Source: Pirellula staleyi DSM 6068
Lineage (GTDB): Bacteria; Planctomycetota; Planctomycetia; Pirellulales; Pirellulaceae
Length of the DNA stretch: 32,000 bases
Direction: 5' to 3'
Assembly: GCA_000025185.1 (NCBI GenBank)
Contig: CP001848.1
Coordinates: forward strand, 5,790,001 to 5,822,000
A program made the position numbers and the translations under genes. Below are positions 6,786 through 32,000 of the stretch, in pieces (positions within the stretch are counted from its first letter, which is position 1; every line of letters begins with the position of its first letter). The notes beneath the pieces are model-generated. The model was not told the DNA's origin. It saw only the letters and a list, made by a program, of their open reading frames with translations, and made no database searches.

Positions 6786-6918
6786 CCCACTGCTGCCAGT
6801 GTGGCTTGCTACGGTGCACCCTTTCACTTGGAATTGAGAAGTCACGACGCGAATCGTGGCGCTCTTGTTTCGAGTGTATTTAGCCTGGTCGCACTTTGAA
6901 GCCACTTGCTCGCAGCTC

Positions 6919-8798: not shown

Positions 8799-8986
8799 AT
8801 CTCTTCGGACCGATGCTCTGACGCAATTATGCACCAGTTGAACAATTGCGCGAGTCACGTTCGCGAAACTACTAGGGTGGTGCATCCACGTCCAAAATTT
8901 CGCCCCAGAGAGATAGATAACCACGCGGTATTGAAAGGAGACGAGCCAAATGGTTCCAACCTTCATTAACGGCAGAATCTATTTCA

Positions 8987-10724: not shown

Positions 10725-11195
10725 GAAAGCCATTCTTGCGGACAAGACTTACCGTGAGTATCAAAAATGAAATCGAGATGTACTTCGAAACTATCTTCGA
10801 GCAATCTTAGAGCTCGTCGAAATTCTCATCGCTTCCCAAGAGCCCTTCGATCCGACTAGTCAACTCGGATCACGTGCTAATAGCTGACGATGGAGGTATC
10901 GACGAACCTTTCGAGCGGCGGCTGCTCAAGGTTTTGGAGCGACATCGACTCCAGGTCACCAAGCTCCCAGCCTTTCATGTTCAGGAAGCCACTAGTGGCA
11001 TTCCTTCGGTGGTCGACCGTTACGTCTACCATCTGGCGACATCGCAGGTGCTCGTGGCGTTGTTTAACCATGCTCTAGATATGGTCGCATTCATGACCCT
11101 GCAGCAGGTTTCTCATGATCTGCCACCTTTGCCGCACTGCGTTGGCAAGTGCAGGAGGCGTTTTGGACTGCATCGGGGCATCCTATCGCGTCTAA
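10725..11195 (+). pseudogene. Decayed copy of the 3' half of the deiminase-family gene (paralogue of 8291-8798)
   Basis: The nucleotide alignment to 8291-8798 is visible by eye. TGG is changed to TGA (source NQNWNRD, copy YQK*NRD). The segment encoding GHADGMVRFIDR is largely deleted and the frame is broken. The remnant ORF 10874-11203 reads DEPFERRLLKVLERHRLQVTKLPAFHVQEAT against the intact DQPFEQRLLKVLERHQLQVTKLPALHVQEAT. Confidence 0.8.
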
Positions 11196-11639
11196 ATCAC
11201 TAGGGCTCGATGCCCTCAAGCAATCGCCTTGGAGACTGCTCGCATCTCCGCTCTCGCCCTTTGCGACGGGTAGTTCGGTGGTCCCCCTTCGAGCAAACCC
11301 ATGGCCAAAAAAAAGCTACCGAAGAACATTTTGCAGTACCTGATCCAAGAGGTTTGGCAGATTCCATCTGTTATGCGAGATCATTCGCATGTCGACACGT
11401 GTAACTGGCTCGACCATCCCGCTAAAGACGGTCAGATTCGAACCACCTGTCGCCAATGTGGCTGTTTCCTCGGCTACCGCCCCCGCAAGAGTGCCGAGCG
11501 GGGCTGGCGAACGATCAGTGCAAGACCACCAAAACCAAGTATCATATTCTCATGACCAAAGGAGTTGAACCCAATTGCTATCTCGCCGTAGACTCGACAC
11601 GATGATGGAACTATGAGATGAGTGCATTATGTCCCTTGC

Positions 11640-11915
11640 ACCAGTCGAACCGCCGGTAAGACTCCGAAAACGCGAGCAAAGCTATCTCGGGATTCAGCGA
11701 GACAAAGCACTGTGTGTCATCAACATCGATGAACTCACAAGACCTGAAACCCCAAGACCTTGCCGCCCCAAGGCACATCGACCTGAAGCTCGACTCGGAC
11801 TCGTAAGCCAACTTGCTGGCGAGCACCTAGGACAAAGCTGCTTTCCTGGTGAAGGTCGACTTGAAGAGAGATGAAAGCTCAGAAACGAAGCGATTTCAAA
11901 CGCTGGCGCGAAGAA
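11640..11915 (-). pseudogene. Fragment of a class-3 lipase gene (paralogue of about 25640-25915), lacking start and catalytic Ser
   Basis: ORF 11611-11826 reads LASKLAYESESSFRSMCLGAARSWGFRSCEFIDVDDTQCFVSLNPEIALLAF. The intact lipase reads LASKLAYESEQSVKSTCLGSARSWGFSSCEFIDVDETQCFVALTPEIALVAF. Nucleotide similarity continues to about 11915, and no GHSLG region is present. Confidence 0.7.
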
Positions 11916-12285
11916 GTCGATTAACCTTGCAACATAGCCCCATACAAGCCATACGAAGCTGCCCGGCTTTCACAAGGTAAAACCACTGAGGGAATCGGCG
12001 ACCCGATGGAAATTGACACATGCAGTGGATTAGTCCATGCGTATGCCGGAAGAATTGTGTTGTTGGCCATTTTCCACGCCTCTTATATTTACTATGGACT
12101 GACACCTGGACGTTAATTCCTTAGCTGCTCAGGACTCGCCAGTGCGTCACCACAAACTTTCGCTGCCTAGGTTGTCTTCAGGCTGGCACAAGGTATCTTG
12201 AGCCTACGATGACGCCCCCCACACATGAGCAAATGGCCAACTTGCCCCTTGGCCGCTTCTTCAGCCATCTTCGGAATAACCAAAA

Positions 12286-15332: not shown

Positions 15333-18300
15333 TTAGTCGCCTTGGACGACTTTACTAGGAGTAGCGCGACAATGTGAAATGTCACGACATTGTGTGAGTA
15401 TATCGATTAGCTTTTTAACTCCATACGCCTTAATCCGAGAGAATACAGCTGAGCCCTCGGACAACAACTCAATAAGCTTCGGACGAACAAACTCTGCATC
15501 GCCTTTGCTATAAACTGCCACTGACAATGCATACAAATAGTGAGCGAATGTGATTTCACGATGAACCTCGTCGATCGCGCTGTTCTGAATTTCAATGAAT
15601 GCGCGCTGTAAGGTTCGGTTCATTGGTGAGATGTTCGTTCTTCCATGCTCCTTTTGACACATCAGAGCGACAACGAATGGATCTGGTGCCTTACCAATAG
15701 CTGGCCAGAGAGATGGATACGGAATATCACCCTCGGCATTGAGCTTCTTCAAGTAGCACCATGCCACACTTTTTACAATCGCTGATATTTCGGCTCCCGC
15801 TGGGATATTCTCCCCCTTGATCCAATCCTGAAAGCGAGTGATGACTAGATTGCGATAGAAGTTGTCGTCATTCCGTAGTGCGTTTCGCCCTACGCCAGTC
15901 GCAAGAACCAATTGGGTAATGCCAGTCAGTGGGGTAGCAGATGTGAACAATGCATCGAGTGCGGGACCGTCAAATCGAATGTTTGCGATGCTACACATTG
16001 CCAAGAAGTTTCCAAGCACATACGGAGCTGTCGAAGCGGCCTCCATGAACGTTGCGAGTGTTTCGAGACTGACGGTAAACTCCTTGAGTCGTTCCCCAGC
16101 CATGCGGAACATAAGCTCGGTGCACGCCCCAAACGACAACTCATCAGGCTGGCTCCCTCGTGTGCAGCTCGCCAAGTAGAGTGCGGCCAATTGTTGCACC
16201 CAGTTGTCATGTGGAATTCGGTAAGTACGGCCGCGATACTCTGGCTCGCCAGGAATAGGATCATCTCCAAGTCGGGCGAAGACAGTCCTGTTAAGCAATG
16301 ACCTAAGGATGGAATCGTCAGCAAACAGGGGGAGCAACCGGGAGAGACGTGCGCGCTGAGACCGCACCTCCGGCGATTCAACGCCAGTCGGCGTATGTGA
16401 CCAGGCCTGGACGCGGGCAATCGCTTGAGACTGAATGTTGCGAAAGGACTGGCTACCTGGGTTGCTGCGAAAGAACTCCCAAGCCACAACAGAGCCCATG
16501 TCCCTCCACTGTTCTTCTGAGATCGCGGGAAAGGATTCGTTCAACCTTGAATCCCGTATCAACCATGAAAATGCTTCGTCGTAGATCGCTGTGACGGACT
16601 GCATTTGTTCATCTGGTATCGATTCAATATGAGGTCCGAGAATGGGCAGTATCAACGGTGATCGCACAAGTGGCTGTAGGGCCGGAGGCACTCGCTGCAA
16701 CTCTGATCTCAGGCGAGGATAGACGGTAAAAGCCTCTTCTTCGTTCGGCGCGCGAACAGTAAACCGCATCTGAGCCGAAGCAAGAGACTCACATTCGGGC
16801 AAGGTGGATCGAACGAAACTCACTAGGCGTGTCGCATTATTCAGCCCTGCTCCAGCAGGGTGCAGAACAACGCTCTGTATTACCCGCCTGATATCCGCCA
16901 CTTCAATCACGTTATGGTGACGGTCCAAAAACTCATCGACGGACTCAAGAAGCAGCAAACACTGTCCGTTATGCATCCAACGATAAACCCATTCGATCGA
17001 AATAGTGATGGGTGGTAGTCCGAATCGTTCTTTACTCTGATTCACTAGCAAGGACGCCATCTCGCACCAGGATCGAATGAGAAGATCCCACGCATGATTT
17101 GCATTCGCCTTAGGGCCGGAAAAGAGCGTCGCAACGTCTGTTGACGATATGTTCAACTGAGGTAGCAGCAGAAACATTGGCAAATGTTCTGGTTCAGTTG
17201 ACAATTGGCAGTATCGCAGGCACACGTCGCGGGCAAAGAAGCGAGCTAATACTGACTTTCCAACGTTTGCCTCGCCCTTCACTACCGCAATTGCCGGGCC
17301 ATTGCTGGCTTGTCGGGCAAATGCATTAAGCGTACTGAGTACTGCTACCTGTGGTCCGTCTTTACCCTGATTGTCCACTCCAAAAGGCTGAACACATCGG
17401 AAAGAAACCAGGAAGTCGTCCGCGCGACAAAGGGTCTCCCATGCAACGGCCAATGCAACTCCATCAAGCCAGCCCGAGAGGTGCCGTCGCAGGTGACTCT
17501 TCACGATATCGAAGTATGACTTGTTGACCTGCCGTATCGACGTGTGAGTCCGGCGAAAAGTGGCCGTTTCGGCATCCGTCCTCACCCAGAGTGTCTTGCC
17601 GTCCACTTCGCTCCGGTCTGCATAGTCTGTGACATGCGGCGCAATGACATTATCTGCCGCCGCAAGGTACTCAATTGCCAACGGGCGCGGCAGTCGAACC
17701 GCATCAAGGTCATTGATCAAGGAGACATACCGTTCCTCCAGTTTCCGAACATAGTCCCCGTGGTACTCCAATTGCCGGACAATCCGGTTATAACCGAAGT
17801 TCATGCCAAGCACGTTCAGCGAACGTAAGAGCGGCCAAAGCACCCACTCATAGACTCCGCCCCAGAAACGTGTCTTCCATTGATCACCACCAAAGTGGGG
17901 CACATCAAAATTGATGATTTGCCGCACAGCGAGAACTGCCAATCTCATGTCGCGGACAGGGGTCAATTCATCGTCGCTACGCCGCCCGGAAAGTTGACGT
18001 CGAAGCGAGATCTGAGAGTGCAACGCCTCTTCGTCAACGTCATTGCAAAGCCACTCCTTGACGACAAGTCCACCTGCGCTATGCGCGAGGACCAGGAGGT
18101 GCTGGTACCGGTCGAGTTCGGGCTTTATCAGGCTATGCAGTTGCCTGCCAGCCGCCGACAAGTCTGCCTCTTCAGTTAGCCCCGCCGGATAATTGAACAG
18201 CAGCGCATCGCATTCCAGCTTTAGGTGTTGTTGCACGGACAGATGGAGTTCGTCCCACGTTAAGCAATTGCTCCGAAAGCCATGCACCATGATCATCAAC

Positions 18301-19409
18301 AGGTCGGCGCGGTACCGTGGGCTATCCTGATTAGGGTAGTACCACCAGCCGTCCACTCCTGCGGATCGGGTGCATCCTGGTGGTGCGCCTGGAGTAGCCG
18401 TCCGTTCCGGTCTCTCTGGCTTCTCGTCAACATTTCCTACTCGGCTTTCCTTTCGGCTACTTCGAGTCGCACGAGGTAACTTCGGGAGATTGAGAGTGCC
18501 ATTCGTTGTTGCCGAGATGTGACGGGATATTGCGGGGAAGAACACACCTTGATTAGCATCGACCTCAGCTCCGCAATGCAGTGCAAGAAGTCGACCGTCC
18601 CGTTGAATACAGGGAGATCCTGAGGACCCGCCTTCCGTATCGACTGCATAGAGAACCCGATTCTGGTCTTGCAGCACGTAGCGACTCGCGATGGGCCCAT
18701 CGGCAATCTCAACGGGACGGCCATCTGGGCATTGGATTATGCATGCATAGTCGCATACATCGAGGTTTATCGACAGTGAGTCGTCGACCGCGAACCACCC
18801 GCGAACATCTCCGATGGGAACGGATAAGCGTACCAGCGCGTAGTCTAGTTCGTTTACTACACTGAATGAAACAAGGGCTTCTACTGCTGCCGGCAGAACA
18901 ACCTCACCATCTTCCTCACGAACAGAATGCTCCTTGAAGTCGAAGCGAAAAGCTATGCGGTGGTCGTCACGAAGTGTGCCATCGTCGATCTGTGATCTTA
19001 GTACGTGATAGTTGGTGATGATTAAATCGGAACCGACGAGAAACCCACTGCCAATCGCAGATCCGTCAATTTCGACTCGACAGACCTGAGGAATTCCTTT
19101 TTGGTAGATGGAACCGGGAATGAATCGATTCCGTTTGGTGAGCCGATTTTGCAGAACGTTACGGTATGCGCCCTTTGCCTCCGCCCGCAATACTTCAAGC
19201 TTTCCCGCGTGTTTGGTCAGGAGTCGCGATACCACCCAGACTTCGCCAACCAGCCCTTGGGCCTGCGCTCGCTGAAGGATGTGTGTTCCATCACAGGGTG
19301 AAACGACCTCGCCAAAAACGTACTCAGATAGGTGTCGCAGTTGATGATCTTCAAGTGTCTCATCAATTGCTACAATCAACTTGGACACGAAATTGTGTGA
19401 GCTGGTCAC
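15333..19409 (-). CDS. STAND (NACHT-type) NTPase fused to an N-terminal helical domain, a trypsin-like serine protease and an alpha/beta-hydrolase (esterase/lipase-like) domain
   Basis: 1358 aa, with a GTG start overlapping the upstream stop (GTGA at 19406-19409). Residues 1-95 form a helical domain. Residues about 100-300 (nt about 18510-19112) are a trypsin-like fold with H in ITNYHVL, D in LDYALV and S in GGSSGSP. Residues about 365-640 (nt about 17490-18317) are an alpha/beta hydrolase with MVHGF and the nucleophile elbow AHSAG. Residues about 695-900 (nt about 16710-17327) are a P-loop NTPase with Walker A GEANVGKS and NACHT-like Walker B LLLLESVDE. The C-terminal region of about 450 aa is helical. 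Confidence 0.85.
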   Translation of the reverse strand: MTSSHNFVSKLIVAIDETLEDHQLRHLSEYVFGEVVSPCDGTHILQRAQAQGLVGEVWVVSRLLTKHAGKLEVLRAEAKGAYRNVLQNRLTKRNRFIPGSIYQKGIPQVCRVEIDGSAIGSGFLVGSDLIITNYHVLRSQIDDGTLRDDHRIAFRFDFKEHSVREEDGEVVLPAAVEALVSFSVVNELDYALVRLSVPIGDVRGWFAVDDSLSINLDVCDYACIIQCPDGRPVEIADGPIASRYVLQDQNRVLYAVDTEGGSSGSPCIQRDGRLLALHCGAEVDANQGVFFPAISRHISATTNGTLNLPKLPRATRSSRKESRVGNVDEKPERPERTATPGAPPGCTRSAGVDGWWYYPNQDSPRYRADLLMIMVHGFRSNCLTWDELHLSVQQHLKLECDALLFNYPAGLTEEADLSAAGRQLHSLIKPELDRYQHLLVLAHSAGGLVVKEWLCNDVDEEALHSQISLRRQLSGRRSDDELTPVRDMRLAVLAVRQIINFDVPHFGGDQWKTRFWGGVYEWVLWPLLRSLNVLGMNFGYNRIVRQLEYHGDYVRKLEERYVSLINDLDAVRLPRPLAIEYLAAADNVIAPHVTDYADRSEVDGKTLWVRTDAETATFRRTHTSIRQVNKSYFDIVKSHLRRHLSGWLDGVALAVAWETLCRADDFLVSFRCVQPFGVDNQGKDGPQVAVLSTLNAFARQASNGPAIAVVKGEANVGKSVLARFFARDVCLRYCQLSTEPEHLPMFLLLPQLNISSTDVATLFSGPKANANHAWDLLIRSWCEMASLLVNQSKERFGLPPITISIEWVYRWMHNGQCLLLLESVDEFLDRHHNVIEVADIRRVIQSVVLHPAGAGLNNATRLVSFVRSTLPECESLASAQMRFTVRAPNEEEAFTVYPRLRSELQRVPPALQPLVRSPLILPILGPHIESIPDEQMQSVTAIYDEAFSWLIRDSRLNESFPAISEEQWRDMGSVVAWEFFRSNPGSQSFRNIQSQAIARVQAWSHTPTGVESPEVRSQRARLSRLLPLFADDSILRSLLNRTVFARLGDDPIPGEPEYRGRTYRIPHDNWVQQLAALYLASCTRGSQPDELSFGACTELMFRMAGERLKEFTVSLETLATFMEAASTAPYVLGNFLAMCSIANIRFDGPALDALFTSATPLTGITQLVLATGVGRNALRNDDNFYRNLVITRFQDWIKGENIPAGAEISAIVKSVAWCYLKKLNAEGDIPYPSLWPAIGKAPDPFVVALMCQKEHGRTNISPMNRTLQRAFIEIQNSAIDEVHREITFAHYLYALSVAVYSKGDAEFVRPKLIELLSEGSAVFSRIKAYGVKKLIDILTQCRDISHCRATPSKVVQGD

Positions 19410-20464
19410 TGCAGACCTCGTTCAAAGGCGATGTGTGCGGCCAAGTCTGGATGATCAACTAGCGGATTCCTATTTCCTTGCGCGGCAAAGATCGCTTGAT
19501 TGCGGTGGCGTTCGTATTCACTGACTGGATGGTCCTGGTGCCATTGAAGGAGCGTCTCAAGTCGATCTGGAGTGTACTCAGAAGTCGACGAATTGATTTC
19601 ACCGGGGTAGCGGAGGAGAAAGTAGAGCGTTGCTCGGGCAACCGTTCCTTTTCCAGCGTTCGGTTCGAACTTGTTGGTCTCGCTCTTGCCGCAGTCAGAG
19701 CGGATGGCCTCGCCAAAGTTGGTGAAGTCGAAATAGGGGGTGTTGCTACGAAAACTGTTGCACTTGGATTCGCAAGCAAACAAATGATGCAAGTCTCCTC
19801 GCATCGGTTGTCGCTTGTTGAACCATGACTGCGGCACCACGTGTTCACAGTTGTAAGGAAGATCGGCTTCCAACGATTCCAAGAATGCTGCTTCCAAAAC
19901 TGGGTTTGCGGCTGCTTCCGATCTTCGGAAGCGATTCATACGCTCACGACGGAGTCGAGCAACTTCGAGGTCACGAGCAATGAACTCAGTCGGCTCAAAC
20001 ATCTGGGTCGAGTAGATGCTGCGAATTTTATGATTCGGCTGCAGGTCCACCCACGGGTACAGATGAATCGCTGGTTTGTATCCCAGTACCTTTATGTGCG
20101 TGTTACGCACGAGTTTGCTCAATGCATCAAATAGCTGCGAAGGGTTGAGAGTTGAAGAGATGCCGGAATAGTACGCTTTTCGTTCAGCGGCATCGGTGTT
20201 TTCGTCGTAATAGGGGCGACTGCGGGACTCTTCGAAGATCTTCCTCGCTGCTTCGAAGTCCGCATCTTCCGGTTCCTCGGATGAGCGACTGGCTGCAAGA
20301 GACGGCGTAGCTGGAGGAGGGCTGGATGTGACAACTGGCGTTGCGACGCTCGGCGCTCCCCCAGTAGGAGTTCCCAATGTGACTGACACGGTTAGCGGGA
20401 TCGTCCAGGTAGCCGTTCTTGAGGTTTGGCGAGCTGAATCTGAAGGAGGTTCGTTTGGAAACAT
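19406..20464 (-). CDS. Endonuclease I family nuclease with N-terminal junction motif and Pro/Ser/Thr-rich linker
   Basis: The Endonuclease I landmarks are NCEHVVPQSWF and GDLHHLF...NSFRSN. The track ORF starts at TTG 20485. I prefer ATG 20464 because AGGAG lies 7 nt upstream on the minus strand. No signal-peptide-like N-terminus is present. Confidence 0.85.
   Translation of the reverse strand: MFPNEPPSDSARQTSRTATWTIPLTVSVTLGTPTGGAPSVATPVVTSSPPPATPSLAASRSSEEPEDADFEAARKIFEESRSRPYYDENTDAAERKAYYSGISSTLNPSQLFDALSKLVRNTHIKVLGYKPAIHLYPWVDLQPNHKIRSIYSTQMFEPTEFIARDLEVARLRRERMNRFRRSEAAANPVLEAAFLESLEADLPYNCEHVVPQSWFNKRQPMRGDLHHLFACESKCNSFRSNTPYFDFTNFGEAIRSDCGKSETNKFEPNAGKGTVARATLYFLLRYPGEINSSTSEYTPDRLETLLQWHQDHPVSEYERHRNQAIFAAQGNRNPLVDHPDLAAHIAFERGLQ
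19446..20417. repeat. 972-bp perfect direct repeat, copy 1 (Endonuclease I module plus linker plus junction motif)
   Basis: A row-by-row comparison with 29851-30822 (offset 10405) found no mismatch. The ORF track also gives identical antisense ORF translations in both copies. Confidence 0.9.
20366..20416 (-). other. Junction motif instance TATWTIPLTVSVTLGTP (N-terminus of the stand-alone Endonuclease I)
   Basis: Read directly from the translation of ORF 19406-20485, residues 24-40. Confidence 0.8.
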
Positions 20465-20544
20465 TAAGCAACTCCTAGAAGACAATCAAAGAGTCCAATT
20501 TTGCAATCAACCGACATCCGACACCAACTACAAGTTTTAAGCGA

Positions 20545-23500
20545 TCACTTCATCGCCTCAAAGAATCGCTCTATATCTAGAATTCCATAACCAAAGCTGT
20601 TATTATGCCGTCCATTGTAATGCTTTGTAGTCTGCCAAAGTGCCTTCTTGACCTGAATCGCATTTGGCATTGATGTGCCATTCTTGCGATGAAATGAGAA
20701 GACGAGTGCAATGGCACCTGTCACGTGCGGGGCAGCCGTACTGGTTCCTGACATTGAAATACATTTAGAAAATGTCCCTGCTTTAGCGGCCTCAATTGAA
20801 GCACCAGGTGCAACTAGATCTGGCTTTGGATTAGCGGCATCATCTAGTCTTAGCGGCCCAAATGACGAAGAAGGCTCATTTTGTCCATTCTCGTCAATGC
20901 CGCCCACAGTGATTACGGAACGAGCAGTTCCAGGGATTGATAATGTGTATGATTGAGAGATGTTATTTAGAAATCTCGTCGGTCGCACGCCAGATCGCTC
21001 GAACCACGCATGTATCCATCCCTCAGATTTCACATCAATACCTCGCACTTTAAGTTTCCATTCTCCTCCAGCGATCCTTCCATATCGATTCGGACGCACG
21101 GTAATTTGAAGTCTGCTATCTCCATTGTCATGGTGACGGTAAGAAAGGTCAATTATTGACTTGGTTCCATCTTCGCAAGTTAGGACTTGTCGCGGTGAGT
21201 ATCTGGATACAATACGTGACTCCTGTCCGGTAGGACTAAAGAGAACAAACTCGCAGATATCAGAAGAATTAAACCAGAGTTCCAAATAGTCTTCTGGTCG
21301 GTGAATTTCTGGATCAGAAAGCCACTCCAGAAGATCGGTCCGACCGTTGGCGATCTGAATCAACGCGTGACCGCCAGCTGCACGTTCATTTCCTGCGGAC
21401 TTAACGATCGCAAGCCCTGGTGCTGTGCCACCGTTTGTGTAAGCATCGAATGCCGCCTCAAGTAGCGATGATCCATCATGAGCACCGGCATTCATTCCAA
21501 GGCTGACATTCACGACCAGCGGCAACCCAAACGAAGCAGCACGTGATTTGAGATACGCCAGGGCTTCCACATGACTTGCAGAGTATCCGAGGCTGTATGG
21601 ATCACTGGACATGACAGAAAGTTTTGGTATCACCAGAACGATTTTAGCGTCAGGTGCGACTCCACCTAGATAATCCCCTTCGGCCTTGCCAGCTGCAATG
21701 CTTGAAACATGAGTGCCATGACCGAGGTCGTCTCGCCCCAATTTTGCCGGAACCCTGCCTTCCCTCACGAAACTTCTAATCCGTTCCATCGAGAACACTG
21801 TTCCATAATTGAGAGAGGCCAAATTTGGAAACTCCTGAGCTGGGGTCCTCCCGTACTCGGCTCGCTGATCCCAAATTTCCAAGACGCGACTTTCGCCAGT
21901 TCCATCGCTGGTCAGGAATGCTTTATGTAAAATATCAATTCCAGTATCAATAATGCCACAAATACAATGACAACCAGTTTCGCCTGCCGGCGAGGAGTGA
22001 ACTGCCGGAGCTCCAACATACGATGACGAGCTCCATTCAAGTATCCCTGCAGGCCGACTGGCTTCAATGCTCAGTACATTCTGGTCCTGGTTCAGACTAC
22101 TTAGGGAGGCGGCTGTTCCAGAGCCTGTTATAATTGTTCCAATTACCGATCTCTCGATGAAACCGATCGGACAGGTCCAATCCTCAATTGAACGAACCTT
22201 TACCAACATTGGAAACACTGGATCATTCACTGTAGGCGATCCTCGCTCAGGTTCTGCACTCTTTAATGTAGTGGTGAGGCAGGACTCCTGTACCTGGATC
22301 ATATTTTCTTGTCTTCGCAAAGCCGCCTTTGATTCAAATGCCCCGATATGGTCCAAATATGTATCGTGCTTAACTGTCGTTAACTCCGGACTTACTACAG
22401 TTCGTGCTGGTTTACTCTTTGCCTCAGTCGGTTTCGGTAAGTTGCGATTGAGCGGGACTAGCTCGCTGGAACAAGTTTTCAAATCATTCTGGAGCGGACT
22501 CCCAATTGTGACTGACACGGTTAGCGGGATCGTCCAAGTAGCCGTTGATCCTGCGGATGCCTCTAACGGAGTTTCAGGAGCTACCGTGCTAGGGAAACTT
22601 ACCTGAACCGGGGGATTTCCAGGGACGGGCTCTGACTCATGCGGAATCGGCTGTGGGTTCAACACCACATCTCGCAGCGTTCCTTGCGTGGATGTCAGGC
22701 CTCCCAGTCCTGAAAGGTGCTCGCGAATCGCCACAACGCGACTCCCTTCGTTGGCGAATGCATCATGGCTCTTGCACCAGTCGAGAGTCGCCAATCCGAA
22801 GAGTAAGTCTTCGATTTCCTGAATTGAGACCTGATAGGGCTCCCAGTCTTCGGGCACTGCAAATTCCAGCGGAACCCCCGTAAGCTTTTGCTTGAGCACG
22901 AACCCAAACGCCTTCGGGCCGTCTTCGGTTTTTGCGATGACGATTTTCCAGAACTGTCGCGGAATTTGGATTTTTAGCGGGCCGCTGGAGTCTACGCCAT
23001 TGAATCGCTTATCGGAGGGATCGAGAACAGGACCTGCAAATACAATTACCCGCTCTGCAGTCGTTTCATCCTCGATTAGGTTTTCAAGATCGCCCCAGTT
23101 ATCGACCCCTTTAGATGCCTGATTAAACTTGGCTACCTGCGGAGAACAATTCGTTGTATGAAAAGTGTCACCGTTCCCCTTTTGCATGTCTAAGAAGGAG
23201 TCGCCCCATGCGACATCGTCGCGACGGACGAGATGCCCACGGTCGAAGGCCCCTTGGTCATTGATGAGGAACTTGTCGTGGAGTTGTTCCTCAAGCGGAA
23301 TACGATCGTCAGTGGCCCAGCTTTCAATGGTGTAGTCGTTATCAAATCCATTGAGTTCCTTCCGGGTCGGCTTGTGGCCATTCGACAGCATCTTGTCAGC
23401 TGATTGCCAGCTGACGTTTGCAGCAGAGAATAATGCCAGTCGACGCTGTTTATGCATGACGACAGAAAACTTGTGATACTTAAGCTCGTGGCTGCCATCG

Positions 23501-24945
23501 GCCAGAACCGAAGTGATGTCTCTTCCATCGGAGGTGAGTTCTGGCATTGGAACCAACTCGCCACCATCGAGTTCCAGAAAGTTGGGGTCGTATCCAGTGC
23601 GTTGTTCAAGGTTGGGATGAATCACTGGGACTTGAAACGTAGCTTCGCGCGCCGCATGGACGGGTGCTGTTGCAGGGGCAACAGTCGCGATGGATAACGG
23701 TTGTCCGATGGAGATCGACACTTGGATGGGAATCGTCCAGGTGCCCGTCTGGGAACTACCTGTGCCGCTCACGAACGGAGTGGATGGTATAGGTGCGGAT
23801 ACAGCACCACCACCCAGCGACTCAACGCCGCGCCACGCGCGGTCCCATTCATCGGTGGGCGGAACGCTGCCCACAAAGTTGATGCCTGAATCCACAACCC
23901 GAGGATCACGTGCCAGCTCAAATAGTGGCACTGAGTAATTTGCTTTGAGTGTTATGCCAGCAAAATGCAATCCTACAACCTCACCAGTTTCCACATCGAT
24001 GATCGCCGAACCCGAATTTCCGGCCAATGTCGAGCTATCGTGTGTCATAGCTGGAACGACATAATCGAAGCTCTCAACACGCTCTCGTACTTCGATCTCG
24101 CCAGGAGCCAGCCTCTTGACCCCAAACGTTGTCCCAAAAACCTTTCGTTCTAGTTGTACAGCACGTCGCGACCGGTCATTTCCGCGCCCTGGGTAGCCAA
24201 TTGCCACGATATTGCGTCCGACCAAATCTTCGGGAGCTCTCACCGATAGTTGGAGAGCTTTGTGCGCTGCCGAAAGCCCTTCGACGCGGAAGATCGCCAT
24301 ATCCCAGTAGGGATGCACCATGACCACATCCGTAAGGTGCAAGCTGGTGGACAGATCGCTCGGGTCTAGACCGCTCTCACGCCTGAAATCGATCGCAGAC
24401 TCAATTCCTGGAACGAATGAAAGTTGGTCGCGGAATCGCCCTACTCCACGCACGAAGGCCTCCGCGACGTGACGGTTCGTCATCATCAGATTCGGGCCAA
24501 CGATAAAGCCAGTGCCGATATGTTGTGGGATGCCGCCAGAAATGTCTTCAATACGACCAATCGACGGAATTAACGCATTGATCCTTGACCGAACAGGGGC
24601 TGCGTTGAATTGCGTCCACGGCTCCGGGAGCGTGTCAAACTGATCATCGATGACGAAAACTACTGGTCGGCCATCTTCCTCGACGATCGCCTCGAGATGC
24701 ATCCGCTCGCGAGGCGAGACGTCGTCAAAATCGCCGTTCTGGAGCTTACGTAATGCCACTGTTTCTAAATCGAAGCTCCGCAGAACAAGATCTTCGCGTC
24801 CACTAGAACCGCTGGCTAGGCTCTCTCGAGTCCCATCGCGAGTTGGCGCAGAGGCTCTCTCTTTGGCGAGAGATTCCAGATTGCCAGTGCCAGCAACCTT
24901 GGACAATTTTCTGCGAAGGGCTTGGAGAGAGGCATCTCGCGGCAT
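20545..24945 (-). CDS. Three-enzyme polyprotein: trypsin-like serine protease + DNA/RNA non-specific (NUC/Endonuclease_NS) nuclease + subtilisin-like S8 peptidase
   Basis: 1466 aa. Residues about 125-345 (nt about 23911-24573) are the trypsin-like domain: GTGFIVGPNLMMTNRHV, DMAIFRV, AGNSGSAI. Residues about 440-720 (nt about 22786-23628) are the NUC nuclease: FDRGHLVRRDD...NCSPQ...NWGDLE. Residues about 990-1466 (nt about 20548-21978) are the S8 peptidase: GIIDTGID (Asp), HGTHVSS (His), SAGNE (oxyanion Asn), SGTSTAAPHVTG (Ser). Two junction motifs separate the modules. Confidence 0.9.
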   Translation of the reverse strand: MPRDASLQALRRKLSKVAGTGNLESLAKERASAPTRDGTRESLASGSSGREDLVLRSFDLETVALRKLQNGDFDDVSPRERMHLEAIVEEDGRPVVFVIDDQFDTLPEPWTQFNAAPVRSRINALIPSIGRIEDISGGIPQHIGTGFIVGPNLMMTNRHVAEAFVRGVGRFRDQLSFVPGIESAIDFRRESGLDPSDLSTSLHLTDVVMVHPYWDMAIFRVEGLSAAHKALQLSVRAPEDLVGRNIVAIGYPGRGNDRSRRAVQLERKVFGTTFGVKRLAPGEIEVRERVESFDYVVPAMTHDSSTLAGNSGSAIIDVETGEVVGLHFAGITLKANYSVPLFELARDPRVVDSGINFVGSVPPTDEWDRAWRGVESLGGGAVSAPIPSTPFVSGTGSSQTGTWTIPIQVSISIGQPLSIATVAPATAPVHAAREATFQVPVIHPNLEQRTGYDPNFLELDGGELVPMPELTSDGRDITSVLADGSHELKYHKFSVVMHKQRRLALFSAANVSWQSADKMLSNGHKPTRKELNGFDNDYTIESWATDDRIPLEEQLHDKFLINDQGAFDRGHLVRRDDVAWGDSFLDMQKGNGDTFHTTNCSPQVAKFNQASKGVDNWGDLENLIEDETTAERVIVFAGPVLDPSDKRFNGVDSSGPLKIQIPRQFWKIVIAKTEDGPKAFGFVLKQKLTGVPLEFAVPEDWEPYQVSIQEIEDLLFGLATLDWCKSHDAFANEGSRVVAIREHLSGLGGLTSTQGTLRDVVLNPQPIPHESEPVPGNPPVQVSFPSTVAPETPLEASAGSTATWTIPLTVSVTIGSPLQNDLKTCSSELVPLNRNLPKPTEAKSKPARTVVSPELTTVKHDTYLDHIGAFESKAALRRQENMIQVQESCLTTTLKSAEPERGSPTVNDPVFPMLVKVRSIEDWTCPIGFIERSVIGTIITGSGTAASLSSLNQDQNVLSIEASRPAGILEWSSSSYVGAPAVHSSPAGETGCHCICGIIDTGIDILHKAFLTSDGTGESRVLEIWDQRAEYGRTPAQEFPNLASLNYGTVFSMERIRSFVREGRVPAKLGRDDLGHGTHVSSIAAGKAEGDYLGGVAPDAKIVLVIPKLSVMSSDPYSLGYSASHVEALAYLKSRAASFGLPLVVNVSLGMNAGAHDGSSLLEAAFDAYTNGGTAPGLAIVKSAGNERAAGGHALIQIANGRTDLLEWLSDPEIHRPEDYLELWFNSSDICEFVLFSPTGQESRIVSRYSPRQVLTCEDGTKSIIDLSYRHHDNGDSRLQITVRPNRYGRIAGGEWKLKVRGIDVKSEGWIHAWFERSGVRPTRFLNNISQSYTLSIPGTARSVITVGGIDENGQNEPSSSFGPLRLDDAANPKPDLVAPGASIEAAKAGTFSKCISMSGTSTAAPHVTGAIALVFSFHRKNGTSMPNAIQVKKALWQTTKHYNGRHNNSFGYGILDIERFFEAMK
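22495..22545 (-). other. Junction motif instance TATWTIPLTVSVTIGSP (between the NUC and S8 modules)
   Basis: Codon-by-codon reverse-complement check of 22495-22545; residues 801-817 of the 1466-aa ORF. Confidence 0.8.
22495..22755. repeat. 261-bp diverged repeat, copy A (protease C-terminal helix + linker + junction motif), located after the NUC domain
   Basis: It encodes ANEGSRVVAIREHLSGLGGLTSTQGTLRDVVLNPQPIPHESEPVPGNPPVQVSFPSTVAPETPLEASAGSTATWTIPLTVSVTIGSP. By hand alignment, 72 of 87 residues are identical to copy B. Confidence 0.85.
23698..23748 (-). other. Junction motif instance TGTWTIPIQVSISIGQP (between the trypsin-like and NUC modules)
   Basis: Residues 400-416 of the 1466-aa ORF. 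Confidence 0.8.
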
Positions 24946-24992: not shown

Positions 24993-26093
24993 TCAGAGAT
25001 TGGCTTTCGCGGCAATCTTGGCGATGTATTTGTCCAGACTATGATCGCTGACGCTCGGGATGAGTCCTTCGGTTTGCGGCATTGTGTGTGACTCAGTCAA
25101 GGGACGATTGACGCTGACAACTTCCTGACCAATCCGAGATTGCAGTCCCTGATACTCAGCTTCGGTGAGCATGGGCGGACCGGGTTTGAACGCCTCATCG
25201 TTTATCGATTCAGCGAATGCTCGCTCGGTGTTCGGCAAGGATTGGCCGTTCTGTAAACGACCTTGGGCATCAAAGTGTAGCAACCGACCGACATGCTCAT
25301 AGCCAGGAGGGACACGTGGCACGATGTCATCGTCGTTAACGAACCGGAAGAACTTTCCGGAGTAGTTTTGCGAGAAGAACATTCGGAAAGAGCCACGCCC
25401 GACAGCCGGTTGCCCAAATGTGACACCCCAGGAAGCAGGCATGAAGTGCTGCCACTCTGCTGCCATTACGGTTGCGAGTGCTCCACCCAGGCTGTGGCCA
25501 GTTAGGATGAGCGTTTGCCCGGCAATTCCCGAAAGCGCCGACCTCAACCGCGACTCCACAGCCTGAAACGCGCCAAGAAATCCCCTGTGCGTAACTCCGT
25601 ACTCGCGCGTTCGTCCCGCAACATTGATGTTTCGGAGCCAATCGCCACGACTCTCAGTTCCGCGAAACGCGACCAAAGCTATCTCGGGAGTCAGCGCGAC
25701 AAAGCATTGTGTTTCATCAACATCGATGAACTCACAAGAACTGAATCCCCAAGACCTTGCCGACCCAAGGCACGTCGACTTAACGCTCTGCTCGGACTCG
25801 TAAGCCAACTTGCTGGCGAGCGCCAACGATAAAGCCGCTTTCCAGGTGAAGGTCGACTTGGAAAGAGATGAAAGATCAAACGATGCTGTGTCAATCGCTG
25901 GCGGTGACGTCGAGATCTGGCCTTCTTGAAGGCCCAATGGAGTATTCACAGGAGCCGACACTCCCGTGCCGACCAGCATCGGCCGACCGATCTCAACGGT
26001 AACGCGCAAGTCGAGTGGAAACGTTGCTATCGATTCAGGCACGACGCAATGTTCTTTGTCTTGCCTAGTGCATTCTCGCAAGTTGTTCGACAT
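24993..26093 (-). CDS. Class-3 (fungal-type) lipase family protein with N-terminal junction motif
   Basis: The lipase_3 landmarks are the nucleophile elbow GHSLGGALA, NDDDIVPRVP (Asp) and SDHSLDKY (His). The track ORF starts at GTG 26174, which would overlap the upstream gene by 35 nt. ATG 26093 has GGAG 8 nt upstream and is my preferred start. Confidence 0.85.
   Translation of the reverse strand: MSNNLRECTRQDKEHCVVPESIATFPLDLRVTVEIGRPMLVGTGVSAPVNTPLGLQEGQISTSPPAIDTASFDLSSLSKSTFTWKAALSLALASKLAYESEQSVKSTCLGSARSWGFSSCEFIDVDETQCFVALTPEIALVAFRGTESRGDWLRNINVAGRTREYGVTHRGFLGAFQAVESRLRSALSGIAGQTLILTGHSLGGALATVMAAEWQHFMPASWGVTFGQPAVGRGSFRMFFSQNYSGKFFRFVNDDDIVPRVPPGYEHVGRLLHFDAQGRLQNGQSLPNTERAFAESINDEAFKPGPPMLTEAEYQGLQSRIGQEVVSVNRPLTESHTMPQTEGLIPSVSDHSLDKYIAKIAAKANL
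25980..26030 (-). other. Divergent junction motif instance IATFPLDLRVTVEIGRP (N-terminus of the lipase)
   Basis: Residues 49-65 of ORF 24993-26174. It aligns without gaps to the other copies, keeping A-T-aromatic, the alternating hydrophobic positions and the terminal G-x-P. Confidence 0.6.
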
Positions 26094-26139
26094 TCTCGTC
26101 GCTCCAAGTGTTACAGAAGACTCATCTACGGAAATTGCT

Positions 26140-29100
26140 CTACTCCGTGCTGGATCGGTTCCAAAAGTGCTCACAGAACCCCTGATTCTGTGTTTGGCTC
26201 AATAGGTCGAAGTACAGTTTCGTCGGGTCAAACCCAATCATTCCCTCGCGAACAATTCTGAGCAATACAAATGCAAGCTGGCAGAAATAGCTCACTTTGT
26301 GATCTTTGCTCCAACTCTTGCTGAATCGGCGGATCGACTCCCAAAGGCACCCCTCCGCTTCCTTCATCTCCCCACTTGCAATGTGCACCATAGATAGAGC
26401 ACAGAAATACTCAGCCGCGACCTCCAGCGAGTACGTTGCTAATAATGGGAAATGAACAAGCACTACTGACTTGGTACGCATGTCTTTTAGGCAATCAAGT
26501 CTCTCGTGTTGCCAAGCCAACCTGATTCGACGAGCTGCCGCCCGCACTCCGAGTGAGCCCTTTTTAAGCTGTCGTTCCAACTCTACCTGGAAGGACTTTG
26601 GTGACCATTGGCTATACTTCCACCAATCAGCGCGACATGCCAGCGTTCTCGGATCGTCAATTTCAACGGTTTTCTCCAGAATGTCGAGTGCGCGTCTAAG
26701 ATCAAAACGATTCTGACAGAAGATGTCGTCTAACTGGTGCTGTGAAACGGCGTCGGAAGAAGCACGAGCTTCCGCTACGTGCCGAAGAACCTCGGTAGCA
26801 GACTGGTGCAAGATTACAGCAGCTTCGGGCAAGAATGGTGCAAGGTCGGGGCTGTCCGCGATTTCCTGGATGGCCGTATCGCGGTTTTGACAACGCTTTA
26901 AACATTCAACAAGCTGAGGTTCCAGTTTGGGTAGATTCCTAAACGCTTCAACCTCAAAGAGGGCGGCGGGCAAACTCTGCAAGAGTTCCTCGGCAGATTT
27001 CTCGCCTTGATTCATCCGGAACATCAGATAATTATCAATGACATTTTTAGTGGCTCCAGACCAGTGAGCATTGTCGCCCGAAAACTTTGCCAATGTTTCG
27101 GTAGCGCTGGCATAGAGTCGTTCGGCTTCCTCCGGCTCGAGTGTTTCCAGCGCCTTCGCAAGTTTCGCGGCGGCTACAGCGTATTGCGGATGCAAGGTGT
27201 CGTAAACTTTCCGAGTCACTTCCAGTACCTCTCGTCGCAAGTCTAACGCCTCAGCACCTCGCTTCTGTTCCTCGATTGCGGATGCCAGAAGGCTCGTCAG
27301 CACACTTACTCGCTGGAGGTCGTCTGGAAAAAGCTTCAAAATGGTCTTTAGGCTTTCTCGTATTTGCTTCTCGGCTTCTGCAGGTCGTTTCAGATCAATG
27401 AGCTCTTGGCCGAGGCACATCAGAGTAACCGCAACTTCGTGGCTCTCACGGCCATGAGCTTGCTCCAAAGCGATCAGCGTTCGCTCCAAAATCGGCATCC
27501 AATTGCACTGCTTGGCGAGCCCACTTTCATCATCAACGCCCCAGTACTTCGCAAACTGGTAAATTTGCAATTGCTGTTCATGGGCTTGCGGCGAGTCAGC
27601 ACCAAACTTATCAGATTGAATGCTCCAGGCACGAAGGTATAGCTGCGCGGCGTCCCTGTTACGTGACGTGTCCCGAAGCAATTCGGCAAGACGCGACAAT
27701 GTCTCGGCTACTTCAGACGAGTTCGGTCCAAATTCCTGTTCACGGCGAGCTAACGCTTCTCGGAGAAGCGGTTCTGCTACCTTCATCTCACCAATAGCTG
27801 TGAGGTAGGTTCCATAAGAAGTGAGTAATCGTGAAAGTGGTCCAGGATTCGGAAACTTGGGAAGATGCGAAAGAACTGATTCGACATGTGGACGAAGTCT
27901 CCTGCATAGCGGCCACTCAGAAACGTATCTGGAATTCGCTGGAAACGATTTGGCAAGCATTCCAACTGCCAAGCGAAACGTTTCTGAAAGATGATCTGGC
28001 GAGTCGTGTTGGGCTCGCAAACGTGTGAATTCCTGAACCAAAGAATGAACGCTTATAGCTTTAGTCTCGTTTGCTTCAAAAGCAAACGAACATCTCTTGA
28101 GAGCCTTTAGCGCGACTCCGACATCGAGACCCGAAGATGCCAGGCAATCCAGGTTTTCAAGTTGAATGACGACCCGTCGATCAAGCTCAGTCGAGGCACA
28201 CCACGAAAGAACCTCCAAAAGTACCTTGGCACTATCAGCAAGTGTCTCCCAGCTTGTGTCCCAAGCAGTTGCAAGAGTTCGATGCCAGTCGTCACGAATG
28301 CCATGCATGCCCCAACCTCGAACCGACTGGTTGCGCTCACGGTAGAATCGCAGGCACTCGTCCAGAGGCTTGGCCTGACCGTCGATCCAATTTGCGACGA
28401 TTTTCAGTGCCAGCGGCAAGCCACCGAGGAGCCGACTGAATTCTGCCGCAGAGGCATCATCATCTTGCAACGACTTCGTTCGGCGCGGGGTGGCATCAAG
28501 TATAAATTGTGCTGTCTCCGACTCGCTCAAACCTCGCAATGCAATTGGCGTGGTAGGTGTGCTCCAGAAAGACTGGTCAAGACGAGAGGTAATCAGGAAA
28601 CGCCTATTTTCCCCGAATTTCCGAACGAACACACACACGGCGTCGCGAGATTGGATTGTGTCTGCACCGTCGATCACAAGCAACCAATTCGAGTTGTTTC
28701 GCAGCCATCTCTCTACAACTTCCTTCCTTCGCAATTCCGACGCCGAGGGATCGCAATCACATTCGCTAGAACTGATTTCGTTGCCGACAAAGGCCGCCAA
28801 TCCGGCTTGAATTGAGCTGTCAAGTGACACATTGACGTACAGAAGTTTGTCATAATCACACTTGTTGTCGCAACCAAATCGTCGAGCTACCGTGGATTTG
28901 CCGACACCTCCGATCCCGGTTAATACAACTGCCGCCGATTTCACAAAGTGATTGCTAATCTGCTCAAACACTTCTTTTTGAAGGACGAAGTGCTCCTCGC
29001 GAACCGTATCTAAAAACCAATCGCTCATCACAGTCGAGTCTTCCGACCTCAGAGCAACTGGTTCATAACCCAACTCCTCCAGGCGAAGCAAAATGCTCTT

Positions 29101-29814
29101 GAACGACACTGCCTTAAGTTGCAGCCTCTCGTCATATCGTGCTCGATGAAGGCCACACAGCGAATAATTCTTGCCTTCCTTGAGAAAAACTCCACCGCCA
29201 CTCATACCCGCTCTTGAACCAGTACCATCGAACGTCACTAGGCCGTTGGCGGTCTTCTCGACCTTCTGAAGGTTGTAACCTGGCTTCGGGCGGACGTTAT
29301 TGTCATTTCCATTGACATAGCCACTGAAGCCTTTGTGGCCTTCTGGATACCCAGAGATCACGCATTCGTTGCCTGCGGCCAATTCCTGATTAATCCAGTT
29401 TCCGGCGATCAACTTCTTATCTTGGCAGTTGCGCCACGCCCTATCGTCGAAACTCAAGAGTGCCCAGTCCGCATTTTCAACATCGGCGATCGGCTGATCG
29501 TAAAAGTGTGAACCGGCATAGGTGGTCAGCGGTTTCACCGCCGTTTCCAACTTGACTGGAATTCCCTTGATTGGGTCGTAACCATACCCGGCTGGCGCAA
29601 CCCAAATATTTTCGTGTTGGGGGCCAAGCTGCTGGGGGGTACTCCCCAAACGCCGAATTACATGGGCACATGTAAGAATGAATGTCTCTTCAGTGCCGGG
29701 CTGTCCCTTCTTTCTTAATCGGATACCAACCCCGGAACCTTGTCCAATCTCGCCTTTCGATGATGCTTGGATGTACCACACAGTACTGCTCGGGTAAGGA
29801 ATCATCTCGCTCAT
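26140..29814 (-). CDS. STAND NTPase (NB-ARC/AP-ATPase type) with N-terminal trypsin-like protease and C-terminal TPR repeats
   Basis: 1224 aa, with an ATG overlapping the upstream stop (ATGA at 29811-29814). Residues 1-250 (nt about 29065-29814) are the protease: H in LTCAHV, D in ADWALL, S in GMSGGGV. Residues about 275-560 (nt about 28135-28992) are the NB-ARC: Walker A GIGGVGKST, Walker B LLVIDGAD, RFLITSR, and the GLPL motif GGLPLAL. Residues about 640-900 are TPR-like repeats (e.g. AETLSRLAELLRDTSRNRDAAQLYLRAW). A helical tail follows. Confidence 0.9.
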   Translation of the reverse strand: MSEMIPYPSSTVWYIQASSKGEIGQGSGVGIRLRKKGQPGTEETFILTCAHVIRRLGSTPQQLGPQHENIWVAPAGYGYDPIKGIPVKLETAVKPLTTYAGSHFYDQPIADVENADWALLSFDDRAWRNCQDKKLIAGNWINQELAAGNECVISGYPEGHKGFSGYVNGNDNNVRPKPGYNLQKVEKTANGLVTFDGTGSRAGMSGGGVFLKEGKNYSLCGLHRARYDERLQLKAVSFKSILLRLEELGYEPVALRSEDSTVMSDWFLDTVREEHFVLQKEVFEQISNHFVKSAAVVLTGIGGVGKSTVARRFGCDNKCDYDKLLYVNVSLDSSIQAGLAAFVGNEISSSECDCDPSASELRRKEVVERWLRNNSNWLLVIDGADTIQSRDAVCVFVRKFGENRRFLITSRLDQSFWSTPTTPIALRGLSESETAQFILDATPRRTKSLQDDDASAAEFSRLLGGLPLALKIVANWIDGQAKPLDECLRFYRERNQSVRGWGMHGIRDDWHRTLATAWDTSWETLADSAKVLLEVLSWCASTELDRRVVIQLENLDCLASSGLDVGVALKALKRCSFAFEANETKAISVHSLVQEFTRLRAQHDSPDHLSETFRLAVGMLAKSFPANSRYVSEWPLCRRLRPHVESVLSHLPKFPNPGPLSRLLTSYGTYLTAIGEMKVAEPLLREALARREQEFGPNSSEVAETLSRLAELLRDTSRNRDAAQLYLRAWSIQSDKFGADSPQAHEQQLQIYQFAKYWGVDDESGLAKQCNWMPILERTLIALEQAHGRESHEVAVTLMCLGQELIDLKRPAEAEKQIRESLKTILKLFPDDLQRVSVLTSLLASAIEEQKRGAEALDLRREVLEVTRKVYDTLHPQYAVAAAKLAKALETLEPEEAERLYASATETLAKFSGDNAHWSGATKNVIDNYLMFRMNQGEKSAEELLQSLPAALFEVEAFRNLPKLEPQLVECLKRCQNRDTAIQEIADSPDLAPFLPEAAVILHQSATEVLRHVAEARASSDAVSQHQLDDIFCQNRFDLRRALDILEKTVEIDDPRTLACRADWWKYSQWSPKSFQVELERQLKKGSLGVRAAARRIRLAWQHERLDCLKDMRTKSVVLVHFPLLATYSLEVAAEYFCALSMVHIASGEMKEAEGCLWESIRRFSKSWSKDHKVSYFCQLAFVLLRIVREGMIGFDPTKLYFDLLSQTQNQGFCEHFWNRSSTE

Positions 29815-31940: not shown

Positions 31941-32000
31941 CGTCGACTCTGTCCGAGTTGCCGACTCACCAAAAACTCGGCGAAAACGGTCAGCCGTGGC

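Follow-up and report, generated by a model that had tools for sequence, protein, structure and literature searches.

The 32,000-nucleotide (nt) stretch of the Pirellula staleyi DSM 6068 genome analysed here (contig CP001848.1, positions 5,790,001 to 5,822,000 of the forward strand; hereafter the window, in whose own coordinates all positions are given) contains a gene, here called gene D, which encodes a trypsin-like protease, a NucA-type nuclease and an S8 subtilase in a single chain. Gene D, the fourth of six tightly packed minus-strand genes (A to F), is near certain to belong to the described trypsin-NucA / CARD-NLR-type immune system, and it is probably a multi-effector component of this conflict system, the modules of which would be freed in defence by proteolysis at a short element, termed J, that marks the boundaries between them. 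Neither the three hydrolases in one chain nor the predicted protease cascade is a discovery in itself, since both are already in the literature (Kaur et al. 2020, PMC7159879, in its section on System 3). What is new is the observation that J marks the module boundaries; the rest is largely explained by published work.

The frame of gene D extends over 1466 codons (4.4 kb) from an ATG, with zero internal stop codons in a scan for open reading frames (ORFs), and the ATG at 24945 is likely the start of the gene, because residues 1-30 ('...NLESL') are kept in homologues. Three Pfam domains were found in the chain, Trypsin_2 (amino acids (aa) 144-326, E 2e-15), Endonuclease_NS (aa 484-717, E 3e-34) and Peptidase_S8 (E 2e-32), and the closest NCBIfam match of the S8 part is the group of clostridial Csp germination proteases. 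The catalytic residues of all three were pinpointed in the sequence and fall on invariant columns of the family alignments: H159, D215 and S311 for the trypsin domain; D568-R-G-H571, N599, N608 and E621 for the nuclease; and D1000, H1076, N1186 and S1402 for the S8 domain. A first-pass annotation, made from the letters of this DNA alone, had described one uninterrupted ORF at 20545-24945 with three full sets of catalytic motifs, and on both points it was right. The parts of gene D are as follows.

20545..24945, minus strand: gene D, trypsin-J-NUC-(relic)-J-proS8, 1466-aa ORF
23812..24768, minus strand: trypsin-fold protease module with conserved N-terminal extension (aa 60-378; Pfam, AlphaFold2, Foldseek)
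23650..23811, minus strand: linker 1, disordered and A/P/S/T/G-rich (aa 379-432; predicted local distance difference test (pLDDT) below 50)
23704..23742, minus strand: J1, TWTIPIQVSISIG (aa 402-414; J hidden Markov model (HMM), i-E 5e-5)
22756..23649, minus strand: NucA/EndoG-type beta-beta-alpha-Me nuclease (aa 433-730; Pfam, invariant columns, AlphaFold2, Foldseek)
22576..22755, minus strand: fusion joint, a relic of the C-terminal end of an A-type trypsin, with linker (aa 731-790; similarity to gene A, orthologue C-termini)
22501..22539, minus strand: J2, TWTIPLTVSVTIG (aa 803-815; J HMM i-E 9e-5; disordered in AlphaFold2)
22048..22374, minus strand: N-terminus of the S8 unit, a long helix (aa 862-889) and small prodomain (aa 911-962; alignment to stand-alone S8 proteins, AlphaFold2, Foldseek)
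20548..22047, minus strand: Csp-like S8 catalytic domain with jellyroll-type insertion (aa 967-1466; Pfam, NCBIfam, phmmer, AlphaFold2, Foldseek)

Both junctions of gene D are copies of J, a 13-residue element of the form TWTIPLxVSVxLG in which a run of Ile, Val and Leu alternates with Ser and Thr. Across the family its consensus is [TS]-hydrophobic-[TQ]-[IV]-P-[LI]-x-[IL]-x-[VI]-x-[LVI]-G, embedded in Ala/Pro/Gly/Ser-rich sequence. The core pattern matches four times in the window, against none in 200 shuffles, and other copies of J lie in gene A (30777-30815), in gene E (20372-20410) and in a decayed cassette (11924-12082). The element is present in every one of the 81 trypsin-NUC proteins of 80 loci, in 68 of them by pattern and in 13 as obvious variants recognised by eye, and the J HMM gave 66 matches among the 4943 ORFs of those 80 loci, always within the trypsin-NucA system. 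J also scores with this HMM in at least 102 of 120 trypsin-Endonuclease I proteins, a family in which the trypsin domain is ~23% identical to that of gene D and the nuclease is of a different family. It stands ahead of NUC, Endonuclease I, Lipase_3 and S8 modules, and the orthologues of gene C, lipases, have a clear N-terminal J in two further loci (L008 and L010). In Fischerella sp. PCC 9605 (L087, 7001-9130) a solitary trypsin-J-Endonuclease I gene stands among toxin-antitoxin, AIPR, transposase and integrase genes, with no STAND gene nearby; such solitary genes exist, and therefore the protease and J can act without partners encoded adjacent to them. Neither the HMM nor a regular expression found J in the STAND proteins B and F. 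A search of the literature returned no description of J and no experimental study of trypsin-NucA-S8 proteins beyond the papers cited here; the System 3 section of Kaur et al. 2020 (PMC7159879) does not mention the element.

Two other natures for J were considered and rejected. An element acting at the DNA or RNA level does not agree with its conservation, which is at the protein level across phyla. In NLR-associated amyloid signalling of the HET-s/BASS type the same short motif is carried by an NLR and by its effector; unlike in those systems, the NLR-like proteins B and F carry no J, which speaks against amyloid-type signalling via this element.

The predicted structures agree with the division of gene D into folded modules and disordered spacers. 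AlphaFold2 gave confident folds for the trypsin and nuclease domains (mean pLDDT 84), for which Foldseek found V8 protease, HtrA and MarP as matches of the first and EndoG and EXOG as matches of the second. J1 and J2 both lie in low-complexity stretches with pLDDT below 50 and are disordered in the AlphaFold2 models, so that the two junction motifs and low-complexity spacers reported in the first-pass annotation were confirmed. The S8 half was modelled with a predicted template-modelling score (pTM) of 0.77, and the pro-forms of CspA, CspB and CspC superpose on it over ~590 columns with a template-modelling score (TM) of about 0.82 (range 0.8-0.85; Foldseek); Csp subtilases are also the best match of this unit by sequence (phmmer E 1e-40). 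Its prodomain, aa 911-962, is a beta-beta-beta-alpha-beta unit followed by a low-confidence connector (967-975) and then by the catalytic core, and together with the alignment to stand-alone subtilases this supports the small pro-domain-type module that had been suspected at about residues 905-965. Like the Csp germination subtilases of Clostridia (CspB, CspA, CspC), the S8 part of gene D has a D/H/S triad, an N-terminal prodomain and an insertion in the catalytic domain; unlike them, it is fused behind a nuclease, is only ~25% identical, and belongs to a non-spore former with no germination context. Prodomains of the Csp type normally cleave themselves off, and we infer that the prodomain of gene D would be autoprocessed likewise; the low-confidence connector at aa 967-975 hints at where the junction would lie.

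The genes around gene D provide further components of the kind that such a system needs. Trypsin_2 domains occur in A, B, D and F, and the catalytic triad is apparently intact in every trypsin domain. The other five genes of the operon are the following.

29811..32000 (window edge), minus strand: gene A, A-type trypsin-J-Endonuclease I, J at 30777-30815
26140..29814, minus strand: gene B, trypsin-like domain with NB-ARC STAND NTPase and TPR, a candidate sensor (Pfam, NCBIfam)
24993..26174, minus strand: gene C, Lipase_3 effector (Pfam) with a degenerate J-like leader (TFPLDLRVTVEIG, 25986-26024; J HMM not significant)
19406..20485, minus strand: gene E, J-Endonuclease I without a protease (Pfam), J at 20372-20410 (J HMM i-E 6e-6)
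15333..19409, minus strand: gene F, trypsin-like domain with DUF676-like alpha/beta hydrolase and NACHT-like P-loop NTPase, a second candidate sensor (Pfam)

The database copy of gene A encodes 743 aa, and its 5' end lies ~40 nt past the window edge, the start codon being outside. The product of gene F has 1358 aa and no NCBIfam match, and its NTPase matches Pfam NACHT weakly (E 0.011).

Relatives of gene D are widespread and variable at their C-terminal end. With gene D as query 258 of them were found, in which trypsin, J and Endonuclease_NS are followed by a variable third domain (S8, S41, astacin, metallophosphatase, DUF1353, phospholipase C, lipase, alpha/beta hydrolase or TIR). Their hosts are Planctomycetes, Alpha- and Betaproteobacteria, Actinobacteria and Acidobacteria, and when each species was represented by a single genome, 512 loci encoding a relative came to light. 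The operon of a Mesorhizobium homologue consists of trypsin-NUC-S8, trypsin, bDLD2-trypsin and STAND genes, and in Anatilimnocola an EAD1-trypsin gene adjoins a trypsin-NUC-astacin gene. The homologues in the canonical operons of Mesorhizobium and Azospirillum sp. TSO35-2 are 41-45% identical to gene D over trypsin and NUC. The one from Azospirillum sp. TSO35-2 (41-44% identity) carries J, and this is the organism whose CARD-like domain was solved by Wein et al. (PMC10312443).

Published members of the system differ from gene D in that its S8 is of a different kind, that it has a second J, that no CARD is detectable and that extra J-led cassettes stand beside it. The System 3 section of Kaur et al. 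2020 (PMC7159879) allows trypsin and S8 domains to flank NucA in one polypeptide as well as a STAND NTPase with a trypsin domain, and predicts a proteolytic cascade that deploys NucA. Gene D resembles that system in its intact trypsin domain, in the NucA/Endonuclease_NS nuclease of the same chain and in the S8 that follows the nuclease, and the operon resembles it in its further trypsin paralogues (A, B, F) and trypsin-bearing STAND NTPases. Unlike System 3, the S8 found here is of the Csp-like subfamily with its own prodomain and was evidently gained by a separate fusion via the second J; no bDLD2/CARD or EAD1 was detected by sequence search; and the host is a planctomycete instead of an alphaproteobacterium, with extra J-led Endonuclease I and Lipase_3 genes. 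In LypC of Caulobacter (Nat Microbiol 2026, PMC13236601), a trypsin domain and an endonuclease are joined by a 'flexible linker', and the protease serine is essential for LypABC-driven lysis. As in CARD-NLR operons and LypABC, with LypC likened by its architecture, the effector here is a fusion of trypsin-like protease and endonuclease encoded beside protease and NLR-like ATPase genes; unlike in those operons, no CARD-like domain was found and each sensor has a protease domain joined directly to it. LypC, for its part, has no S8, and its nuclease is dispensable. In Avs2 and Avs4 (Evans et al. 2025, PMC12642450), a trypsin-like protease at the N-terminus of the STAND protein makes site-specific cuts in linkers, with Ile as P1, and thereby switches on latent nucleases and pore formers. 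A STAND sensor with an N-terminal trypsin-like protease is encoded here as well (B, F), whereas the effectors of Avs2 and Avs4 (MBL nuclease, alpha/beta hydrolase, Pepco, EACC1) are proteins apart that have neither a protease domain of their own nor J, and cleavage has been demonstrated there.

In the mechanism that we propose, B and/or F would sense the invader and oligomerise, whereupon their protease domains would be switched on. They would cut the linkers at or beside J, the trypsin domains of A and D passing the signal on, and so free the nucleases, the lipase and the pro-S8, the last of which would then shed its own prodomain, as Csp subtilases do. Death of the infected cell would follow from the destruction of its DNA, lipid and protein by the freed enzymes. 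J would serve in this as a portable recognition or cleavage tag that permits any hydrolase to be placed behind the trypsin domain. Similar logic is familiar from viral polyproteins with a chymotrypsin-fold protease, in which the protease shares one chain with enzymes and conserved junctions lie between them, and from the pathway from caspase to CAD/ICAD, in which proteolysis licenses a nuclease in programmed death; with gene D both are analogies of logic only, and the junctions are not homologous. Cleavage at J itself is a best guess, about as apt to prove wrong as right, and it draws support from the Avs2 and Avs4 proteases, because these cut after Ile in linkers and J is rich in Ile, Val and Leu. 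That the mechanism would be driven by a protease is supported because the protease serine of LypC is essential, and the solitary trypsin-J-Endonuclease I genes support it too, in that protease and J there make up a pair sufficient in itself.

A number of observations weigh against release by proteolysis. No linker cleavage has been reported in the literature for any family member, and LypC variants were stable on immunoblot at the expected size of 73 kDa, with no processing mentioned (PMC13236601). The nuclease residues of LypC are dispensable for lysis (PMC13236601), and therefore the nuclease need not be the killer. Structure prediction, proposed in the first-pass annotation as a check for a nuclease site occluded in the full-length protein, showed no sign of occlusion in the AlphaFold2 model of the trypsin and nuclease domains of gene D, in which inter-domain confidence is low (pTM 0.54), and no docking of J in cis onto the protease, nuclease or S8 of gene D, J being disordered in the AlphaFold2 models. 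The J-like stretch of gene C bears a weak resemblance to the element (HMM score 2.5). Effector-only genes headed by J exist, namely gene E, a J-Lipase in Verrucomicrobium and a J-Endonuclease I in Kuenenia, and these fit a docking tag equally; in L007 (12329-13528), a D-type trypsin-J protein ends 11 residues past J without an effector. Even at E up to 1, searches of the N-terminal segments of A, B, D and F found no CARD, bDLD2 or EAD1, and CARD-like domains share poor sequence similarity among themselves (Wein et al., PMC10312443). Taken as a whole, the distribution of J is explained nearly as well by a strand for docking or pairing as by a site of cleavage. In L007, the next ORF after the effector-less trypsin-J protein is in the same frame and encodes 500 aa with a hydrophobic N-terminus.

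The alternative that follows from several of these points is that gene D is not cut at all. It would then be an intact multi-enzyme scaffold in which the trypsin domain relays a signal, and J would be a docking or pairing strand, either a minimal homotypic adaptor, akin to the effector-associated domains, or a strand inserting into a partner protease, that gathers A, D, E and perhaps C on the activated STAND assembly. J is kept on both halves of naturally split genes, as in the L007 trypsin-J protein and the protease-less J-Lipase and J-Endonuclease I genes; as an amphipathic beta-type strand of 12 residues, it exceeds the usual length of a cleavage site; it is unstructured in the monomer models, as an intermolecular element would be; and the immunoblots of LypC variants, with processing unmentioned (PMC13236601), agree with an uncut protein. 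This explanation is nevertheless unlikely: homotypic pairing of J with the sensor is not possible, because the STAND proteins B and F do not have it, the catalytic triad is kept in every trypsin domain, so a substrate is needed, and the solitary trypsin-J-nuclease genes have no nearby encoded partner.

Measured against this balance, the proposal of the first-pass annotation that gene D may be a polyprotein, cut by itself or in trans, which releases a nuclease and a second protease on activation survives in part. The disordered J linkers, the Csp-type prodomain, the precedent of Avs, the LypC serine and the proposal in the System 3 section of Kaur et al. 2020 are in its favour; the lack of reported linker cleavage, the lack of modelled occlusion, the dispensable LypC nuclease and the recent origin of the layout by fusion are not. 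It also repeats the prediction made in that section in 2020 and is not new.

The history of gene D bears on how much design may be read into it. Residues ~858-1466 reproduce in full a subtilase of ~590-600 aa that is widespread as a stand-alone protein, its own N-terminus ('K.D.YL...') and prodomain included (919 matches); this subtilase is frequently fused behind Lipase_3 and also occurs next to genes for trypsin-J-NUC or for other defence proteases (L002, L014, L020). All three orthologues that were checked are without the S8: P0002 (77% identical), a Pirellula metagenome-assembled genome (MAG), L007 (82%), and a Planctomycetaceae MAG, L008 (83%), the two MAGs being the closest genome relatives. 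These three proteins stop 2-4 residues after '...DWCK.HD', and the more distant L010 also ends exactly before the fusion joint, whereas gene D runs on past this point as 'ANEGSRVVAIREHLSGLGG...'. What lies at the joint is recognisable, since aa 731-817 of gene D match aa 304-390 of gene A, that is, its last trypsin helix, linker and J, at 83% of amino acids and 87% of nucleotides. An A-type trypsin gene directly follows the trypsin-J-NUC gene in L017, L018 and L021. In the simplest history, a deletion would have taken the stop of gene D together with most of a downstream A-type trypsin domain, and so would have joined trypsin-J-NUC in frame to a tail-J-S8. To judge from these comparisons, the S8 part of gene D is a lineage-specific, recent fusion, and the three-in-one layout is likewise a recent fusion and not an integrated design. 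A chimera of the assembly at a repeat was considered as the source of gene D and rejected, given that the shared sequence ends at the joint instead of spanning it, and that the genome is finished.

The surroundings of gene D have been rearranged as well. Positions 19439-20417 and 29844-30822, in genes E and A, are 99.8% identical over 979 nt; the identity begins ~10 codons ahead of J and ends ~30 nt short of the stop codon, and gene E is evidently a very recent copy, or a gene-conversion product, of the 3' half of gene A. Some 3 kb outside the operon, debris of another cassette remains, in which the Lipase_3 fragment has 87.5% DNA identity to part of gene C.

11611..12082, minus strand: decayed cassette, J (AWTNPLHVSISIG; J HMM E 0.005) and Lipase_3 fragment

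It might be argued from all this that the three-hydrolase ORF is an evolutionary accident, in which a deletion fused neighbouring genes whose parts are now decaying or independent, and that a 'polyprotein logic' is over-read into it. The three S8-less orthologues, the vestigial trypsin tail at the joint, and the further debris and very recent duplications at the locus would all be expected of such an event. We regard an accident of this kind as improbable, however, as the frame is open over 4.4 kb with all catalytic residues intact, and comparable fusions recur independently. P0003, a metagenomic protein of 1648 aa, has four hydrolases in one chain, trypsin-J-NUC-Lipase_3-proS8, with a Csp-like S8 as in gene D. 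The trypsin-NUC-S8 proteins of alphaproteobacteria have an S8 of a different, shorter type, and because the types differ, the trypsin-NUC-S8 architecture must have arisen more than once. Moreover, genes for Csp-like S8 and Lipase_3 are regularly found next to those for trypsin-J-NUC (L014, L020, L002).

A wider reading of J may also be put forward, tentatively; we rate it as somewhat short of an even chance. On this reading J would be shared throughout this immune class as a portable 'address tag', a 13-residue strand set in a disordered linker, which the trypsin-fold proteases would recognise either to cut it or to dock onto it. A hydrolase of any kind would become a regulated death effector once it stood behind J, effectors would be exchanged between genes by recombination at the element, and gene D, with its two J copies and fossil trypsin tail, would be such shuffling caught in the act. 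Sharply conserved and found at each module boundary in two unrelated trypsin subfamilies and with at least five effector types, J is a candidate site of processing or docking, and it makes the idea of proteolytic release in trypsin-NucA and CARD-NLR systems directly testable. The locus shows multi-enzyme effectors built by the fusion and copying of J-bounded modules, which would explain their variety, and gene D offers a tractable source for such work, as it comes from a cultured, fully sequenced planctomycete.

The operon lies within a defence island, the other members of which are, in order, as follows.

98-2896, minus strand: type I restriction R subunit
4503-4997: PD-(D/E)XK nuclease
6856-7962: WYL/WCX-domain regulator
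8987-9883: D12 adenine methylase

The G+C content of the window is about 52%, compared with 57.5% for the Pirellula staleyi genome (PMC3035237), which would fit an acquired island. PADLOC returned only generic matches ('subtilase', 'nacht' on the trypsin region, RT-protease, LmuA) and assigned no system, and Trypco/Pepco, EACC1, EAD and bDLD2 gave no Pfam or NCBIfam match in the operon proteins. That the genes form a system of the polymorphic-toxin type which attacks other cells, with a constant N-terminus, J as the pre-toxin junction, exchangeable cassettes and orphan cassettes for recombination, is very improbable: the constant protease and J ahead of variable C-terminal hydrolases, the orphan-like copy E, the decayed cassette at 11611-12082 and the sequence identity that starts at J recall such toxins, but A, C, D and E have no trafficking domain in Pfam and no signal peptide in their translations as judged by eye, no predictor having been run, no small immunity ORFs lie between the cassette genes, which overlap or are separated by no more than 59 nt, the locus is surrounded by genes for STAND NTPases and for restriction/methylase proteins, and published work places the family in intracellular immunity (PMC7159879, System 3 section; PMC13236601; PMC10312443).

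Downstream of the operon, a cytochrome P450 gene (14110-15330, minus strand) begins 2 nt past the stop of gene F on the same strand, and it may be co-transcribed with the defence operon; genes for a CMAS-like methyltransferase and an acyltransferase adjoin it on the opposite strand. Elsewhere in the island, a PAD_porph gene (peptidyl-arginine/agmatine deiminase-like) lies at 7959-8798, and a second, broken copy of it is present, with 77% nt identity between 8291-8827 and 10725-11224.

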